Shown here piece after piece: positions 40,238 through 47,499 of a DNA stretch of 64,000 bases. Under the pieces are notes generated by a model. The model saw nothing but the letters and a program-made list of their open reading frames with translations. It did no database searches and had not been told where the DNA came from. How positions within the stretch are numbered: position 1 is the stretch's first letter; each line of letters starts with the position of its first letter. Location of the stretch: assembly GCA_963831865.1 (NCBI GenBank), contig CAWHSP010000032.1:1395-65394 (forward strand), given 5' to 3'. Origin of the DNA: Candidatus Bathyarchaeota archaeon. GTDB taxonomy: Archaea > Thermoproteota > Bathyarchaeia > Bathyarchaeales > Bathycorpusculaceae. The position numbers were made by a program, and so were the translations under genes.

Positions 40238-40402
40238 TTAGAGTTTTCTTTTGGCTTTGCCGACGTCTTCTTGGATTTTACCTTTAACTTTTTCAGCTTC
40301 GCCTTTAATTATTTGACCTGTGTTGCCAGTAACTTTGCCCGCGCCTACGCGGATTTTGCCTTCATCCTTTTTGAGTTTTCCTTTAACTTCATCTTCACTC
40401 AT
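40238..40402 (-). CDS. CsbD-family stress protein, copy 1 (missing from the ORF track)
   Basis: MSEDEVKGKLKKDEGKIRVGAGKVTGNTGQIIKGEAEKVKGKIQEDVGKAKRKL; palindrome at 40449-40472. Confidence 0.85.
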   Translation of the reverse strand: MSEDEVKGKLKKDEGKIRVGAGKVTGNTGQIIKGEAEKVKGKIQEDVGKAKRKL

Positions 40403-40598
40403 AAAATTTCACTATAAACGTAGTACCTCTGAGATTTAATTAAACGTGTGTGACTGTTATCTCGCACCAACAATAAGCCGTTGCTTTAAAGAGAGCTTAT
40501 TTTGTCTCGTGAGTTGAATCTTTTGAACAAATATGACTTCACGTTTACAAAAAAGTTGGGAAGCAGCTTTTGGTGCTGCTATCATGTTTTGGTTGCTG

Positions 40599-40757
40599 TT
40601 ATATTCTGCGTCCTGTAAGCAGTCGAGCAAGTATTATGATGATGGCGATGACAAGCAGAACCCATATGATAGTGCCAAGGTTGAAGATGAAAAAGCCCAA
40701 AAGCCACAATACAATAAGAATCACACCAACAACGAAAAGAAAATCAAGTGCTCCCAT
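40599..40757 (-). CDS. lmo0937/DUF5670-like small membrane protein, copy 1
   Basis: MGALDFLFVVGVILIVLWLLGFFIFNLGTIIWVLLVIAIIIILARLLTGRRI; palindrome at 40807-40830. Confidence 0.85.
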   Translation of the reverse strand: MGALDFLFVVGVILIVLWLLGFFIFNLGTIIWVLLVIAIIIILARLLTGRRI

Positions 40758-41084
40758 TTTCAAAAACCTTCACTTACCCTTAACTTGACTGCTTTATTTT
40801 AATATGTGTGACTGTGAACAAACAGTTACAACTTCATCAGCCTTTCTTTTTAGTCTTTTTGGAAGTGCATATGAATGTTTCTTAATTTTCTTTAGTTTCA
40901 GTTTCCTTTGAATCGTCAGGGTACCAATTTGTTTATTAGCCATTGTGAGAGCTGATTTTTTGAGGATTTTTAAGTGAGTGACGAAGAAGCAAAGGGCAAG
41001 ATCCAGAAAACAATAGACAAACCACATGAATGCCACCAAAACTAAGAACACATGGGTAACGGCTGGCAGTTTGGCCATAAAAAA

Positions 41085-41235
41085 GGTCAGAGGCACAGGA
41101 AACGTTGCTTCATACGCTCTTAACAGTTTGTTGTGCCTGATTCTGAATAGAGAAGCAGCTGAGAACCTTGGAAATCAGACAAAGGAGCTCACCAAAACTC
41201 TTCAATACATAATATCGGGACAAGCAGCCCGTTAA
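41085..41235 (+). pseudogene. Transposase C-terminal remnant
   Basis: VRGTGNVASYALNSLLCLILNREAAENLG resembles DDE transposase C-termini. Confidence 0.5.
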
Positions 41236-41297
41236 GAGTATTCGGCTTTACCTCTCAGAAGCTATTCTTACTTGTTCTCAAAAAAAAGAAAAGATGT

Positions 41298-41480
41298 TTA
41301 AAGGGATTCTGGGGCGCAGAGGTTTTCTGCTTTGGCAGCTGTACGCATACAGCTTTTGCAGATGTATTTCGCGTCTTTCACAAATGGCTTTATCTTTTCT
41401 ATTGGTACTTTATCCTCTACCATTTTGCAGAGGTGTTTTTCATGACCTGGATGAGGTTGGGCTTTTGACAAAACTTTCAC
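41298..41480 (-). CDS. Small Cys/His metal-binding protein
   Basis: HEKHLC...YICKSCMRTA..ENLCAP; palindrome at 41516-41539. Confidence 0.75.
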   Translation of the reverse strand: MKVLSKAQPHPGHEKHLCKMVEDKVPIEKIKPFVKDAKYICKSCMRTAAKAENLCAPESL

Positions 41481-41613
41481 TTAAACAAGTGAATGAATAA
41501 TACTACATATAGTATTGTGATTGTGCTGTCACAACTACATAATATTATGTTTCCCATCACAGAATTGTTTGGGAGAATCAACAACTATTGAATAAATTAG
41601 GGCGTTTTGAGTT

Positions 41614-41853
41614 TTAAATTTTCTTCTTGGGGGTTTGATGCTCAGTTTCCAAGTGCATGGTTAATTCTTCTTTAGTATTGAAAACTTTACCACATATTTG
41701 GCAAGTAACCTTGTTTGGCGTTGGATTACTAATTCGAGGAAAGGAAGGCTGCTGATCTGGGGATTCAAAAGAGCCATCTGGTGGGGATGGTGCAATCAAA
41801 TCATTGAATGATTCATTTGGCTTCTTTTCGTAAGGAAAATCAGGCTCAGTCAA
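41614..41853 (-). CDS. C2H2 zinc-finger protein
   Basis: CQICGKVFNTKEELTMHLETEH; palindrome at 41898-41921. Confidence 0.8.
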   Translation of the reverse strand: MTEPDFPYEKKPNESFNDLIAPSPPDGSFESPDQQPSFPRISNPTPNKVTCQICGKVFNTKEELTMHLETEHQTPKKKI

Positions 41854-42311
41854 AATCTTACCTATAATACAAGTGGTTTATGCTTTTCTTAAACATTTGT
41901 GACTGTCTAACGACAATAACGTAAAAGTAAGTCTCAGTTAAGCAAACACTTTACTCGTTTCTTTCTCTCATTTTTTTTCACGAGAATTTTCTTACAATGC
42001 AAGTTGAACCTTTCTTCTCTCTGTCCTTCTACTATACTCGATGTCCTCGCCCAAAAGCCTATCCAGCAACGATTGCGAAGTAGATATTGTGTTTCTAAAG
42101 CTGTAGGCAGGCTCTGTTTGAACTGAATAGGCAGTGCGTGTGGAGATTTTTGGTTTTATTGGTTGGTTTTATTGGTTACCCTCTTAATTTTTTTACTGCA
42201 ACTGAAAAATTGGGAAAACTATTTTATTTGTTGCTTTAGATGTTTTTCAAAGCTAAGTAACGCGTTTTTCCCTTTTCAAACTTAATCAAAACTCTTTTTG
42301 TTGAATAAACC

Positions 42312-42662
42312 TTATGTATTCTCTCTAAATGTGTATCCGCAATTTGTGCATCTTAGAAATTGGGTGGATGATTCATCTGCGCCTCTTGTTTGAACTTGCC
42401 AGGCGTACGCATTGTTGTTTCCACATCTTGAGCACGTAACCTGTATGGTTGGCAGAGTACTTAGCTGAATTTCTTTACCTAACACTGAAACTAATTGCTT
42501 TGGACTGTGGTCTATAGTTTTGCCGTTGATTTTTATGTTTTCACTTGATTCTTTTTGTTTGTGCCCACATTTGGTACATACAAGCACGAGTGTAGTTTGT
42601 TTTCCTGTTTTGACCTTTTTAGTTACAAGACGGGAACCGCATTCTGAACAAAAATCCACCAA
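42312..42662 (-). CDS. tfs: Transcription factor S (TFS/RpoM) family protein
   Basis: FCSECGS..CTKC; CSRCG..QTRGADESSTQFLRCTNC with the acidic DE hairpin; palindrome at 42712-42735. Confidence 0.9.
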   Translation of the reverse strand: MVDFCSECGSRLVTKKVKTGKQTTLVLVCTKCGHKQKESSENIKINGKTIDHSPKQLVSVLGKEIQLSTLPTIQVTCSRCGNNNAYAWQVQTRGADESSTQFLRCTNCGYTFRENT

Positions 42663-42840
42663 GAAACAACTCCTTTTTCAACATAGAAGAATATTGAAGC
42701 ATAAATAGTCATGTTACTGTGTCAGATATATAACAAAGTACAAAGTTCAGTAACGCTAAAACGATTGCAGTAACTTAGCGGTTGTTGTTTCAATTTGTAA
42801 CAGCATCATTTTATATTTGTTATAATTGTGAGTATCTAAT

Positions 42841-42969
42841 TAGAAAGTGGAAGTAGCTTAGAACCAAGTTGAGCGGGTCTGGCTACTAACAGATGATAAG
42901 GTATTTCGCAGTATTTTTGGCGCCTTGTCAATGTTAGCGCTTGGCTAAATCCGCTTAATCCCCTTTCTA
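42841..42969 (+). ncRNA. Putative rod-shaped structured ncRNA, about 130 nt
   Basis: Nested helices with six G-U pairs; TATA TTTATATT at 42810; no ORF. Confidence 0.6.
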
Positions 42970-43045
42970 CCCCATCAAAACCACAAGAATTTGTTGTTTA
43001 TCACTTCTTCTTTCAGATTTACAACGAGGTTAGCTTGATAGAATG

Positions 43046-43280
43046 TTACAGTTTTTCAGGCGGCATCCAAACTGCTTTGCCGTCCACTATCTCCCGCTCA
43101 ACAGGCAACGGATAGGGCAATCCTAACGCTTCAAACACGCTCTGCTCAGTTTCTCAGGCGACTGCCACACCGTCCTTGATTAGGCCTTCGCTGTATTTGA
43201 TTCGCATTCCTTTGGAAATGGCGTACCTGCAAGCCACATATTATGGTCTGCTGATCCAGTGCGGACAAGTAGGTAGGTTT
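43046..43280 (-). pseudogene. DNA polymerase X (beta) thumb-domain remnant
   Basis: YLLVRTGSADHN..AISKGMRI..EGL..ETEQSVFEALGLPYPLPVERE with an internal stop and a frameshift. Confidence 0.7.
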
Positions 43281-43570
43281 GATTCAAAAAAGGGATCGCC
43301 CTGCATTTCATACGCAGGACGTTTATTCGCTTGGTTTCTCTTCGGCGGGTGCAGGTGCTTCAACTGGTGCCTCAGCGATTCTATTAACATATGTAACTGC
43401 TATTAAGCACCAACAAACAACAAGCCATTGCTCTAAGGACATATTAGGTTATACAAATTGAAACAGCTTGTTTTGTCAAGAACTGTTAGCACCATTGTAA
43501 CTGTCGAAACCCAACAACAAACGGATATAGAGTAGCCTCAACAAAGTTTAGTGTATCAAGGCGATTAGAA

Positions 43571-43960
43571 ATGAGTAAAACTCTTACAAATCAAGATGCT
43601 TCAAAAATCCTGTCCCCTGTGCCTTCAAAGAACGCTTTTTATTTTTGCACTGCAGAGGGACTCTACACAAAAGTTTCAGCAATCAGTCTGGAAGATTTTG
43701 CAGCCAAATTGGATGGCATAGATAATAGCTCTATTTTGTTTCATTATCCACGGGGCGATTTTCAAGCTTGGATAAGAGACACTTTAAAAGACGATGTATT
43801 AGCCGGCAGAATGTGTTTTATTCAGCGGGATATTTCGGGAGAGCAGCTTAGGAAAGAACTGTTAAAGATGGTGCAAAATAGAATAAGTGAACTCAAAGCC
43901 TCAAAGCAAGAAATATTTCCCCCAAGCCTATGTAATAAGGACGGCTTATGCCTATCTTGA
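43571..43960 (+). CDS. DUF5752-family protein
   Basis: AFYFC..SLEDF..SILFHYPRGDFQAWIRDTL; palindrome at 43496-43519. Confidence 0.8.
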   Translation: MSKTLTNQDASKILSPVPSKNAFYFCTAEGLYTKVSAISLEDFAAKLDGIDNSSILFHYPRGDFQAWIRDTLKDDVLAGRMCFIQRDISGEQLRKELLKMVQNRISELKASKQEIFPPSLCNKDGLCLS

Positions 43961-43987
43961 AACTAATGTGGGTGCGAGGTAGAAAAA

Positions 43988-44230
43988 ATGAGAGCTGGAG
44001 CATTAGGAGTCGGCGTTTTCCTGTTGGCTATCGGTATTGTGATTTTCTGGCTTGGCTATTCCGATTTGCAGCAGTACGGCGGTTTGTTTGGTCAAATATC
44101 GCAGTCTCTTTCTGCGGAGGTTCGAAATAAGGTTGCTCAAGATCAGTTTATGGCGGTTGGCGGGGGATTCGCGGCAATCATCGGCTTGGCCGTAACAATT
44201 TATGGTTTAGCAGCTAATCGAAAAAATTAG
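43988..44230 (+). CDS. Small two-TM protein, copy 2
   Basis: Near-identical inverted duplicate of 36396..36635. Confidence 0.75.
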   Translation: MRAGALGVGVFLLAIGIVIFWLGYSDLQQYGGLFGQISQSLSAEVRNKVAQDQFMAVGGGFAAIIGLAVTIYGLAANRKN

Positions 44231-44323
44231 AGGTTAAGTGAACTTTAATTGATAAGTAACTCCTTCACAAAACGCATTGGTACAATAAACTCTAATCAGT
44301 AAAAGCCTCACAATCTACAGGAG

Positions 44324-45721
44324 TCAGAGGTCATATTCTTCTAAGTACACTGGGGCGGTCACTTCCCATCCGCCCTTTGAATGCAGATAATTCTCTAAGC
44401 TCAAGATCGATCCTTCTTCGCCATGAGTCAAGAAAACATGCTTCGGCGGAGCTTTGAAGTTGTTAAGCCAGCGCTGCAAATCATTCATGCCAGCATGCGC
44501 AGATAAACCATTAATGTTCTCGATCCTCATCCGCACGGGATAGGATTGACCGAGAATACTGACGGGGGAAACACCGTCCAAGATTTGTCGTCCCAGTGTT
44601 CCAACCGCTTGGTATCCCACGAAAATAAGTGTGGATTCAGGACGAGTTATCTCTCTGACCAGATGATGCTTAATTCGTCCTCCTGTAATCATCCCCGAGC
44701 CAGCCATAATGATTGTAGAGCCTTTGATTAGGTTGATCGCCTTAGATCCTTCAACAGATTCGACAAGTTTCAATCCTGGAAAGTCAAAGGGGGTTTGACC
44801 ATCCTTGAAGAGTTCCAGAGTTTGTTTGTCAAAATACTTCTTGCTTTGTTCAAAGACCTTCGTGATTTCGACGGCCATAGGGCTATCAAGAAACGTAACA
44901 ATGTAGGGAATTCTTTTTGCTCGCGCTAACAAGCTAATATGGTATAAGAGTTCTTGGGCTCGCTCAATAGCAAAGGTGGGGACGATGACGTTTCCGCCAG
45001 CTTTTACTGTGTCATTGATAGTCTTGCTGAGTTTATCATCAATATCTTGTAGGTTATCGTGATTTCGATCTCCGTATGTGGACTCCATAACCACGTAATC
45101 TGCTCGATCAAATACAGTTGGGTTGCTGAGTAGAGGCGTGTCAAACTGGCCGATATCGCCAGAGAAGATGATGTTTCGCGACCCGTTGTCGTCTTCGAAA
45201 ATGATCTCAATCATGGCCGAGCCAAGGATGTGACCGGCATCGTGGAAACAAACCTTGACTTGATCGTTTAGTGGCAAAAATTCTTCATAGGGAACAGCTT
45301 TCAGGAGCGGAAAACATTTTTCTGCATCTTGGACTGTATATAAAGGGGTTTCTGGAAAAGGTTCCTTTTGTTCTTCGTTATCACGGCGGTTTTTCTCGAA
45401 GGCAGCATCTTCTTCTTGTATTCGGGCAGAATCCAAAATCACTATCGGAAACAACTCTTTAGACGCAGAGGTGAGCAGAATATCTCCGTGAAACCCTTCT
45501 TTAACAAGCTTAGGAATAAGCCCAGCGTGATCTTGGTGAACATGGGTGAGGATGAGATACTGGATCTGGTCTGGAGGAACAGGGAACGCCTCCCAGTTTC
45601 TGTGGGAATAATCCCGTTCCTGAAACATGCCGCAATCCACGAGGATTTTCAATTCGGCAGTTTCGAACATGTAGCTTGATCCTGTCACTTGACGTGTTGC
45701 GCCTAGGAATTTTATTTTCAT
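44324..45721 (-). CDS. MBL-fold beta-CASP ribonuclease (CPSF73/YSH1-like)
   Basis: VTGS, DCGMFQ, THVHQDH, AGHILG, SGDIG, MESTYG, SAHA, THGE. Confidence 0.9.
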   Translation of the reverse strand: MKIKFLGATRQVTGSSYMFETAELKILVDCGMFQERDYSHRNWEAFPVPPDQIQYLILTHVHQDHAGLIPKLVKEGFHGDILLTSASKELFPIVILDSARIQEEDAAFEKNRRDNEEQKEPFPETPLYTVQDAEKCFPLLKAVPYEEFLPLNDQVKVCFHDAGHILGSAMIEIIFEDDNGSRNIIFSGDIGQFDTPLLSNPTVFDRADYVVMESTYGDRNHDNLQDIDDKLSKTINDTVKAGGNVIVPTFAIERAQELLYHISLLARAKRIPYIVTFLDSPMAVEITKVFEQSKKYFDKQTLELFKDGQTPFDFPGLKLVESVEGSKAINLIKGSTIIMAGSGMITGGRIKHHLVREITRPESTLIFVGYQAVGTLGRQILDGVSPVSILGQSYPVRMRIENINGLSAHAGMNDLQRWLNNFKAPPKHVFLTHGEEGSILSLENYLHSKGGWEVTAPVYLEEYDL

Positions 45722-45863
45722 GAATCTTCCCCTGAATTGTAATTTTTCAAGATATTTAGAGTACGTAACTGAGATGACTAGTGAAGCTGAATAAACCTAA
45801 AGAACTTTTTTATAATCATTTTTTCTAAAACCACTTTCGGAACCATTCATCAAACAATCGATA

Positions 45864-46142
45864 TCACTCTTTATGCCACTCCTCTTCATTTGCTTCTTTT
45901 CGTAAGCAATCAACCATTTTCAAGTGATTAGTTATTTCTTTGGAAGCCTCAACCAAGCTAATCCTAACTATATCTATTGGAACACAGAGGTCTTTAACGT
46001 TGATTTTTCCATCTGAGCCTTTAACTTCAACCTCTAGTCGTTTTAGTACATCTAAACCTGTAGCTTCAGCTTTTATTAGTTTTAGAAGTTCTCCTTTATT
46101 GTTGGTTTCTTCCAAGAATTGCACCCACAGAAAACGAGTCAA
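45864..46142 (-). CDS. Hypothetical protein; start uncertain
   Basis: 92-aa ORF; degenerate palindrome near 46157-46179. Confidence 0.45.
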   Translation of the reverse strand: MTRFLWVQFLEETNNKGELLKLIKAEATGLDVLKRLEVEVKGSDGKINVKDLCVPIDIVRISLVEASKEITNHLKMVDCLRKEANEEEWHKE

Positions 46143-46228
46143 TTTCTAATAAAAAGAGTGACTGGAACCTGCAATGACAAGATATCGTTTGAATGTGCTG
46201 ATTTTGTTGGGTTTGAACTTAGTGGTTA

Positions 46229-46412
46229 TTACTCGTGTCCTTTTGTTTCGTGGTGCGTTGTATCTCTGTGTCTCTCCATTTCTGAGTGGGTCTTGAAGGT
46301 TTTTCCGCAGTCTGGACAAGGAATCTGGCTTGGTTCTATTCCACTAATTGGTATCTCTTGGGACTGACGCCGCTCCCGACGTGTGAGGTTGCTGTGTTTC
46401 TTTTTTACGCAT
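46229..46412 (-). CDS. C2H2 zinc-finger protein; probable ATG at 46412 plus a frameshift
   Basis: CPDCGKTFKTHSEMERHRDTTH; palindrome at 46462-46485. Confidence 0.7.
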
Positions 46413-46635
46413 GAGTTACACCTAAACAATCTATTAGCGGGGTCAAGCTTTCTTAAGTATATGTGACTGTGACAAGACGACAACAAAGTCACTCTTATTT
46501 CAAAAATCCAATCTTTGTTGGTTAGAAACAAAACTCAGGAAATCAACAAGCAGAAGACCTAGTAACTTAATTATTTTTCCAAAATGAAATAAACAAGGAG
46601 GAACCTTAAAGAAGAAAGAAGAAATTTGGCGCCTG

Positions 46636-47034
46636 CTACTCCGTAGGTTTACCGTTGTAATCTTCCGGCGAAGTTTCGGCTTCTGCTTTGGTGTGGCGAA
46701 CGACCTTGTCTTGATGCTCTGGTGGTGAATAGATTGTATAGAGTTTGAGCTCCAAGTTTTTGGAGGTGTTGATAACGTTATGCTGCGTTCCCGCAGGCAC
46801 TATGATTGCGTCGCCGTCTTTGACTGTGTGCTCGATCCCGTCAATGAAAACTTTGCCTTCACCTTCTTCGAATCTGAAGAACTGGTCTGTTTCTGTGTGG
46901 GTTTCCAAGCCTATTCCTTCCAAAGGTTTGAGGTTCATCAAAACAAGCTGGCTATACTTGCCTGTGTAAAGCACTCTTCTGAAGTCAGAGTTTTTCCTGG
47001 TCTCTTCTTCGATTGATGTTGAATATCCCTTCAC
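46636..47034 (-). CDS. Cupin domain protein (ManC-like)
   Basis: FRRVLYTG..QLVLM..ETH..DQFF..VPAGTQHN..YSPPEH. Confidence 0.9.
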   Translation of the reverse strand: MKGYSTSIEEETRKNSDFRRVLYTGKYSQLVLMNLKPLEGIGLETHTETDQFFRFEEGEGKVFIDGIEHTVKDGDAIIVPAGTQHNVINTSKNLELKLYTIYSPPEHQDKVVRHTKAEAETSPEDYNGKPTE

Positions 47035-47172
47035 ACTTAATCACCTTCACTAACAGTATTGGAGCTCTCATTTATCAATTTGAGTTTAAGGCCTTAAGAT
47101 TCAGATTTGCCCAATTGAGGATAAAAATAAGTCTTCATCGTTTCTGTAATCTTTCAAAGGCTTTGTTTTTAG

Positions 47173-47499
47173 CTAGCCTTTTCGCCTAATAACTGTGATG
47201 GTGCATCTTGTTGCTAAAGCTGCTATTGCGCCCAAAGCTCCTAGCCAAGGAGCTAATATTGTTCCTACAATGCCAGCCCAAACTGGTATTTCTAAAAGAA
47301 TCTTGCTGTTCTCGTCTTTCACGATGATTCTTGATACGTCGCCCTCATGAATAAGTTCCTTGATTTTCGCTACAAGATCCTCTGAGCGGACAGTAAACTC
47401 CTCTTTTACGCCTACGGGAGCCCCACAATTTGAACAGAATTTGGACCCTTCAGACAGGTCAGCTCCACAACTTTCACACTTAATCATTTTATTCTCCAA
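47173..47499 (-). CDS. Zinc ribbon plus DUF4342 protein
   Basis: CESCG..FCSNCG; LVAKIKELIHEGDVSRIIVK..LLEIPV. Confidence 0.85.
   Translation of the reverse strand: MENKMIKCESCGADLSEGSKFCSNCGAPVGVKEEFTVRSEDLVAKIKELIHEGDVSRIIVKDENSKILLEIPVWAGIVGTILAPWLGALGAIAALATRCTITVIRRKG

Follow-up and report, generated by a model that had tools for sequence, protein, structure and literature searches.

A structured RNA at the tfs locus

Peat, sediment, and soil harbor abundant Bathyarchaeia, a group of uncultured archaea. In one of their genomes, a stretch of 64,000 nucleotides (hereafter, the window) carries a palindrome, a TATA element, and a self-complementary region beside a divergent tfs (TFIIS-like) gene (42312..42662, − strand; PF01096), which raises the question of whether an RNA gene lies here and, if so, how it might be controlled and what it might do. 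A preliminary description of this DNA had proposed an unannotated rod-shaped RNA of about 130 nucleotides, with its own promoter, an alternative fold, and RNA-level selection on its stem, and the four helices that it drew were all found, with every position and pair count as given there. RNA folding of 42835-42980 yielded −45.7 kcal/mol on the + strand (z −3.49), a value equaled by 0/200 shuffled sequences, versus a z of −0.73 for the same stretch on the − strand, where 44/200 shuffles were equal or better; together with the covariation described below (reached by 0/500 shuffles), this strand asymmetry upholds the claim that the RNA itself is under selection. The element was also unannotated and non-coding, as had been proposed: no open reading frame of ≥50 amino acids overlapped the RNA body, a tRNA search of the window returned none, and Rfam 15 gave 0 matches in the whole window at gathering score, nor did the element itself match any model at E values up to 10.

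The locus is organized as follows, all on the + strand. A palindromic regulator box (42782..42805) is followed by the TATA element TTTATATT (42810..42817), both as previously noted, and the start site is predicted near 42840 from archaeal spacing after TATA. A purine-rich 5' leader of variable length (42840..42867) contains, at 42863-42865, the position of a family GCC directly before the stem, which reads ACC in the window copy. The 5' arm of the conserved helix (GUUGAGCGGGUCUGGCUACUAACA; 42868..42891) leads into an upper stem and a pyrimidine-rich apical loop (42894..42930) with a U5 tract at 42914-42918, and the 3' arm (42932..42959) includes a 4-nucleotide CNNG bulge, CUUG in this copy. 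In the family register derived from homologues, this bulge occupies 42940-42943 and U42884 pairs with 42939. The 3' tail (42960..42973) consists of a U tract, degenerate here (UUUCU), and then a C run; its U tract is likely the terminator.

Copies and distribution of the RNA family

Four copies were detected in the source genome (69% complete), on contigs C32, C48, C57, and C2. A first covariance model built from 33 sequences recovered 312 matches in 85 of the 101 genomes of the genus, likely Ca. Bathycorpusculum, with 1 to 11 copies per genome (median, 3), and a second one, for which 81 diverse sequences were used, recovered divergent copies in two of five retested negative genomes and none in five other negatives. 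At least five genomes of the genus had no match although listed as 93-97% complete, and the RNA is therefore either dispensable or too diverged there. Outside the genus, model R1 gave one marginal match among 151 genomes of the class (E = 0.027) and model R2 one among 151 genomes of the family (E = 0.053), family features being absent from both on inspection. An exact pattern matched 55 times in a species-genome collection, nearly always under the names Bathyarchaeota or Bathyarchaeia and five times under other or vague names, while the viral contigs searched gave 0 matches. In metagenomes, 100 stretches matched; among the 80 matches listed no contig was transcript-sized, the shortest having 1,020 bases. 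For the locus-level analyses below, a reverse-strand echo and a marginal match were removed from 105 distinct rows, and 104 loci were used.

Comparison with catalogued RNAs placed the family in no group tested. When 20 metagenome loci with homologues were searched against Rfam, the sole match was to a microRNA model and, at 30.9 bits, fell below the gathering score of 82. Derivation from SRP RNA, RNase P RNA, or rRNA was dismissed for lack of any profile match, and both canonical SRP and RNase P RNAs are present and unrelated. Archaeal guide RNAs of the C/D and H/ACA types are recognized by conserved C/D boxes or by a pocket plus kink-turn plus 3' ACA, and inspection of the consensus by eye found neither set. 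The literature examined, from which subscription papers were mostly outside scope and whose supplements could list an unnamed motif, contained no description of this RNA or of any regulatory RNA of Bathyarchaeia. As judged from sequence comparison, this is a real, uncatalogued RNA family.

Several loci were unusual. Two RNA copies lay within ∼700 bp of each other at L073, L142, L154, and L156, the second usually much more diverged, and both arms of a ∼12-kb inverted self-match (93-98%) at L226 (G301:C4:1-13000) contained an RNA copy, a structure that is either a fold-back assembly artifact or a recent inverted duplication.

Covariation and conserved motifs

The rod of the preliminary description stood in its inner part. 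In an unfitted alignment of 81 sequences, 88% of the cells paired (slid controls, 29-45%) and 23 of 31 pairs changed on both sides, which 0/500 shuffles reached; a model-fitted alignment of 105 distinct rows, taking in the two rows later dropped, gave 13 of 20 such pairs and again 0/500, although kinship among copies inflates both counts and overstates the number of independent events. The two helices of the conserved stem were paired in 95% and 90% of the cells and covaried, and the upper stem had double-sided changes at 8/8 pairs with 73.5% pairing. Mutual information over 115 dereplicated sequences ranked three helix pairs first, some unpaired columns being high as well; the column pair 52-106, which flanks the CNNG bulge, was among the top covarying ones, and the same analysis set the 3' bulge at four bases. 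The resulting consensus is a continuous rod interrupted by a 1- to 2-nucleotide loop and the 4-nucleotide bulge. Copy by copy, the + strand folded better than the − strand in 84/104 cases, and z fell below −2 for 51/104 copies on the + strand versus 19 on the − strand. The outer helix (42841-51/42959-69), by contrast, was not conserved across the family: 49.9% of its cells paired versus 50.2% after shuffling (314/500), the low-complexity ends aligning poorly, while a leader-tail pairing of ∼6 pairs on average was still predicted copy by copy.

Sequence conservation was highest in the paired helix interior and at the C and G of the bulge and lowest in the leader and loop. The CNNG motif occurred in 108/115 sequences and its last G in 114/115. 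Single-stranded parts were variable save for the GCC and the U tracts: a U4+ tract was present in the apical loop of 101/115 sequences (mean predicted unpaired probability, 0.82) and in the tail of 104/115, and it was followed by GC in 43/101 internal and 54/104 tail cases, against a genome background of 10%. A conservation peak in a helix and two bulged bases, taken together with trans-type genomic contexts and multiplied copies (see below), points to a protein-binding RNA that would be made in quantity on a signal. We infer that helix and bulge form a surface read by a protein rather than a pairing seed, although the conserved helix could also be explained by its opening to pair with a target.

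That second explanation belongs to an alternative in which the RNA switches conformation or pairs with other RNAs: either the 5' arm would be held by the leader during transcription, or a short form would leave one arm free for target RNAs. The alternative fold claimed earlier does exist as an 11-pair leader:5'-arm helix in the window copy, and nascent chains with ends at 42890-42945 had their lowest predicted energy in this fold; at full length it was 7.5 kcal/mol worse than the rod, with a pair probability of ∼1e-4. Across 81 homologues, 67% of the cells of this helix paired versus 28-43% in slid controls, and the like 3' context of the internal and terminal U tracts would suit a short form that stops at the internal one. 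The covariation of the helix, however, was borderline: it was equaled by 5 and 11 of 500 shuffles, as kinship among copies can bring about by itself. Paralogues within one genome differed in the leader, and a crude duplex screen of 1,724 start regions for antisense targets gave best energies within a few kcal/mol of those of shuffled queries. The sole top match shared in that screen, on contig C8 and at a start of doubtful standing, was dismissed on inspection. We consider a pairing or switching role unlikely; the leader:5'-arm fold is plausible as a transient state.

The promoter box and its regulon

A regulated-type promoter of the RNA's own, as previously proposed, recurred across the family. 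The box, with the consensus TTGTTGYTTCA-N3/4-TGTGACAACA, preceded 86/104 genome copies at ≤6 mismatches, with a conserved TTATAT next to it, and 18/104 copies had no recognizable box. It was also present in 67/76 metagenome copies with full flank, a set that may overlap the genomes, and in 54 of those 67 the TATA element, recognizable by its column conservation, began 4 nucleotides past it, a fixed spacing. In the source genome, box and TATA scores coincided at the four RNA copies only, the matrix having been trained on RNA copies. Box-like sites with weak TATA elements at G000 C25:636 (−) and C8:15733 (+) precede two similar unannotated reading frames, and no RNA copy lies behind the former.

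Exact matches to the box pattern numbered 68 in 43/101 genomes, versus 0 for the reversed pattern; a looser pattern was at chance level (14 versus 8-12). From the 68 sites, 27 were fetched, mostly those away from RNA rows already listed. Among these, 21 preceded full RNA copies, one a degenerate copy, and one a truncated copy; three preceded zinc-ribbon micro-proteins, a label that rests on CPxC motifs, and one a stand-alone Lrp/AsnC-domain gene. The single-domain CPxC micro-proteins behind the RNA's box (46-90 amino acids) were seen at L262, L265, and L280 and at G000 C24:1311 and C48:238611. On these sequence patterns, the box appears to mark a small regulon and is likely an activator site.

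The identity of the regulator can be approached by analogy. Archaeal Lrp dimers bind imperfect inverted repeats of 13-17 bp with AT-rich centers, activation proceeds from sites at a constrained position immediately before the promoter, and stand-alone RAM proteins partner full-length regulators (PMC2995911). The geometry of the box core matches such sites, its length being 24 bp with outer arms versus the 13-17 bp given there (PMC2995911), and an Lrp-type dimer is possibly the regulator. AsnC-domain genes were, however, present in RNA-negative genomes too and are hence not specific, so that this assignment is a guess.

Genomic context and probable spread of the cassette

The RNA occurs independently of its neighbors. 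Crude clustering resolved ∼45 context groups among the 104 loci, including gaps in ribosomal-protein and ilv clusters and rRNA flanks (labels from translations), and the next downstream gene lay on the same strand in 52 loci and on the opposite strand in 51. This strand split and the variety of contexts disfavor a role in cis. A leader or attenuator acting on the next gene would be equipped with a promoter, an alternative fold, and U tracts, all of which are present; with the opposite orientation at 51/104 loci, gaps of ≤106 nucleotides in only 6 of the 52 same-strand cases, and downstream genes unrelated to each other, we regard that explanation as highly improbable. The link to tfs drawn in the preliminary description found no support in the same survey, tfs adjoining the RNA in only 3/104 loci, two of them orthologous.

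Copies appear to spread between loci. In one genome, three copies were 99-100% identical while sharing only 182-242 bp; in another, two near-identical copies shared 293 bp; overall, same-genome copies at separate loci reached 98-100% identity. The shared unit began within a few bases of the left edge of the box in three independent sets, one further junction fell mid-box, and the 3' ends were ragged. Inspection by eye of the junctions of near-identical copies in the three sets found neither terminal inverted repeats nor target duplication, and reading by eye through the 40 largest neighbor clusters revealed no apparent transposase or reverse transcriptase. Box-edge 5' junctions, ragged 3' ends, and missing target duplication favor box-anchored recombination or gene conversion over transposition, and the promoter-plus-RNA cassette was thus likely copied or homogenized by this route rather than by classical transposition.

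The spread raises the alternative that the family is a repeat of the MITE or SINE kind, selfish or nearly neutral, with a structure that furthers the propagation of the repeat itself. Archaeal MITEs are short, non-coding, multicopy elements with terminal inverted repeats and target duplication. The RNA family is likewise short, non-coding, multicopy, and found at varied loci, and the many unrelated insertion contexts, the 98-100% identical copies across the loci of one genome, the common 5' junction at the box edge, and the existence of truncated and degenerate copies would all suit such an element. Unlike MITEs, the family has a promoter and a G-U-rich, strand-asymmetric, covarying stem, and a MITE identity, which the preliminary description had named as grounds for abandoning its proposal, was contradicted by the junctions. 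Low copy number, the lack of viral-contig matches and of an apparent transposase or reverse transcriptase near the copies, and the use of the same box by host protein genes also speak against this reading, which we hold to be quite unlikely.

A tentative model and its relation to known RNAs

In the reading that we prefer, at a probability of roughly 45%, this is a sibling RNA under the control of an inducing regulator; its conserved helix would bind a protein, and promoter and RNA would spread together as one cassette. A dimeric regulator, possibly of the Lrp type, would bind the shared box and activate transcription from ∼42840, producing a free-standing rod of ∼130 nucleotides that would end at the 3' U tract. 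The RNA would then act in trans as a decoy or scaffold for a protein, which would recognize the conserved helix and the CNNG bulge, with an Sm-like protein perhaps seated on the single-stranded U tracts; additional copies may raise the RNA dose, and the cassette would be copied or homogenized through recombination anchored at the box.

Multiple paralogous RNA genes with a common upstream box, the feature by which sibling RNAs are recognized, were found. Qrr and csRNA are further bacterial examples of sibling small RNAs under one regulator, and we know of no archaeal example of dispersed sibling RNA genes under one box. The bacterial CsrB/Rsm RNAs are likewise dispersed paralogous genes that arose by duplication and carry a common upstream regulator box (PMC6262261). 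The RNA family differs from them in being archaeal, in forming one long rod instead of many GGA hairpins, in showing no sequence or Rfam match, and in having a promoter-plus-RNA cassette that moves among many loci. The resemblance thus seems to lie at the level of gene organization, where as many as eleven sibling genes that share a single box would represent a bacterial regulatory design in archaea. A defined family with a covariation-backed structure, a mapped box, and a small regulon offers direct handles, namely, a model for mining small-RNA data, a DNA bait for the regulator, and an RNA bait for the partner.

The previously suggested 6S-like role has lost the argument from tfs, that adjacency being rare, and can be assessed on the RNA alone. 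6S RNA has a central two-sided bubble closed by stems that mimics an open promoter, and it binds RNA polymerase and templates a product RNA. Like 6S, a bacterial protein-binding RNA (PMC3432209), the RNA described here is a free-standing rod, predicted to be plausibly abundant and protein-binding; unlike 6S, it is multicopy and confined to a single genus. Attachment to the archaeal RNA polymerase, so as to dampen transcription in starvation or stress in the manner of 6S or B2 RNA, would be a special case of protein binding. The rod shape, the high copy number, and the common inducible-looking promoter suit an abundant shut-down RNA, as does the likeness of the archaeal polymerase to RNA polymerase II (PMC2995911). 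Against it stand the lack of any Rfam 6S match up to E = 10, the lack of a conserved two-sided bubble, and the non-conservation of the outer helix needed to close such a bubble; moreover, restriction to one genus is atypical of a core-machinery regulator, and we therefore judge this role improbable. Equally doubtful is its boldest form, an archaeal 6S/B2 counterpart in which a signal-induced, self-amplifying cassette would spread by recombining into the promoters of its own regulon, its rod attaching to core transcription or translation machinery and so throttling activity in famine. If the partner did prove to be core machinery, a new mode of archaeal global control would follow.

Other resemblances concern single features. 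The long stem from paired ends, the short 3'-strand bulge, the pyrimidine-rich loop, and the U tail resemble the layout of Y RNAs. The Y RNA comparison fails on the missing Rfam match and on the missing partner, no Ro60/TROVE gene (PF05731) being detected in five of five RNA-bearing genomes tested, four of them ≥90% complete, by a search whose control was positive in 2/14. With the Sm sites of snRNA type (PuAU4-6GPu; PMC3710371) the family shares single-stranded U4-6 tracts beside stems, often followed by G; unlike in that motif, the base after the G is mostly C rather than a purine, one U tract is apical, and the other is maybe just a terminator. Sm-like proteins bind U-rich single strands (PMC3710371), and their (LSM) genes were found in five of five genomes, three of them RNA-negative, and are hence not specific.

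Another candidate came from the neighborhoods. Genes for an unnamed protein family of 70-80 amino acids lay within 1.4 kb of 16/104 RNA copies; this family was found in 92/101 genomes of the genus, with up to 29 matches per genome, and was rare outside it. RNA and protein co-occurred in 83 genomes, with the protein only in 9, the RNA only in 2, and neither in 7, and their copy numbers had a rank correlation of 0.66, which kinship and genome size confound. The protein has a confident alpha/beta structure model (pLDDT 90), no Pfam family, and only unnamed neighbors in the Atlas, and a fold search gave no clear match (best Foldseek E, 0.17; best Z, 6.4, with an rmsd of 2.3 over 65 residues). No box was evident before the seven genes of this family in the genome studied here. 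The co-expanded protein is a weak lead to the partner of the RNA. Members include L042:1794-2012 and relatives and, in G000, proteins on contigs C39, C9, C48, C3, C56, and C32.

Further features around the window locus

Several tfs-like paralogues (five matches) occur in the source genome, at 42312-42662 of the window and on G000 C57, C39, and C48; the duplicate of tfs and the box region on C57 is 90% identical, whereas the RNA copy that follows it has diverged further. Downstream of the RNA, 43049-43270 (−) is a gene remnant with in-frame stops, the last piece of which shows a below-cutoff similarity (E = 7e-4) to the DNA polymerase beta thumb (PF14791), and related stretches lie on C42 and C57. 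In a close relative (L040:861-1348), ∼490 bp are extra just downstream, with a winged-helix gene (PF14947) inside that is flanked by two ∼90-bp copies matching 43046-43135 of the window. The wider surroundings (40238-47499) form a cluster of small genes, general-stress in type, for CsbD, DUF5670, DUF3185, cupin, DUF4342, and beta-CASP metallo-beta-lactamase proteins.
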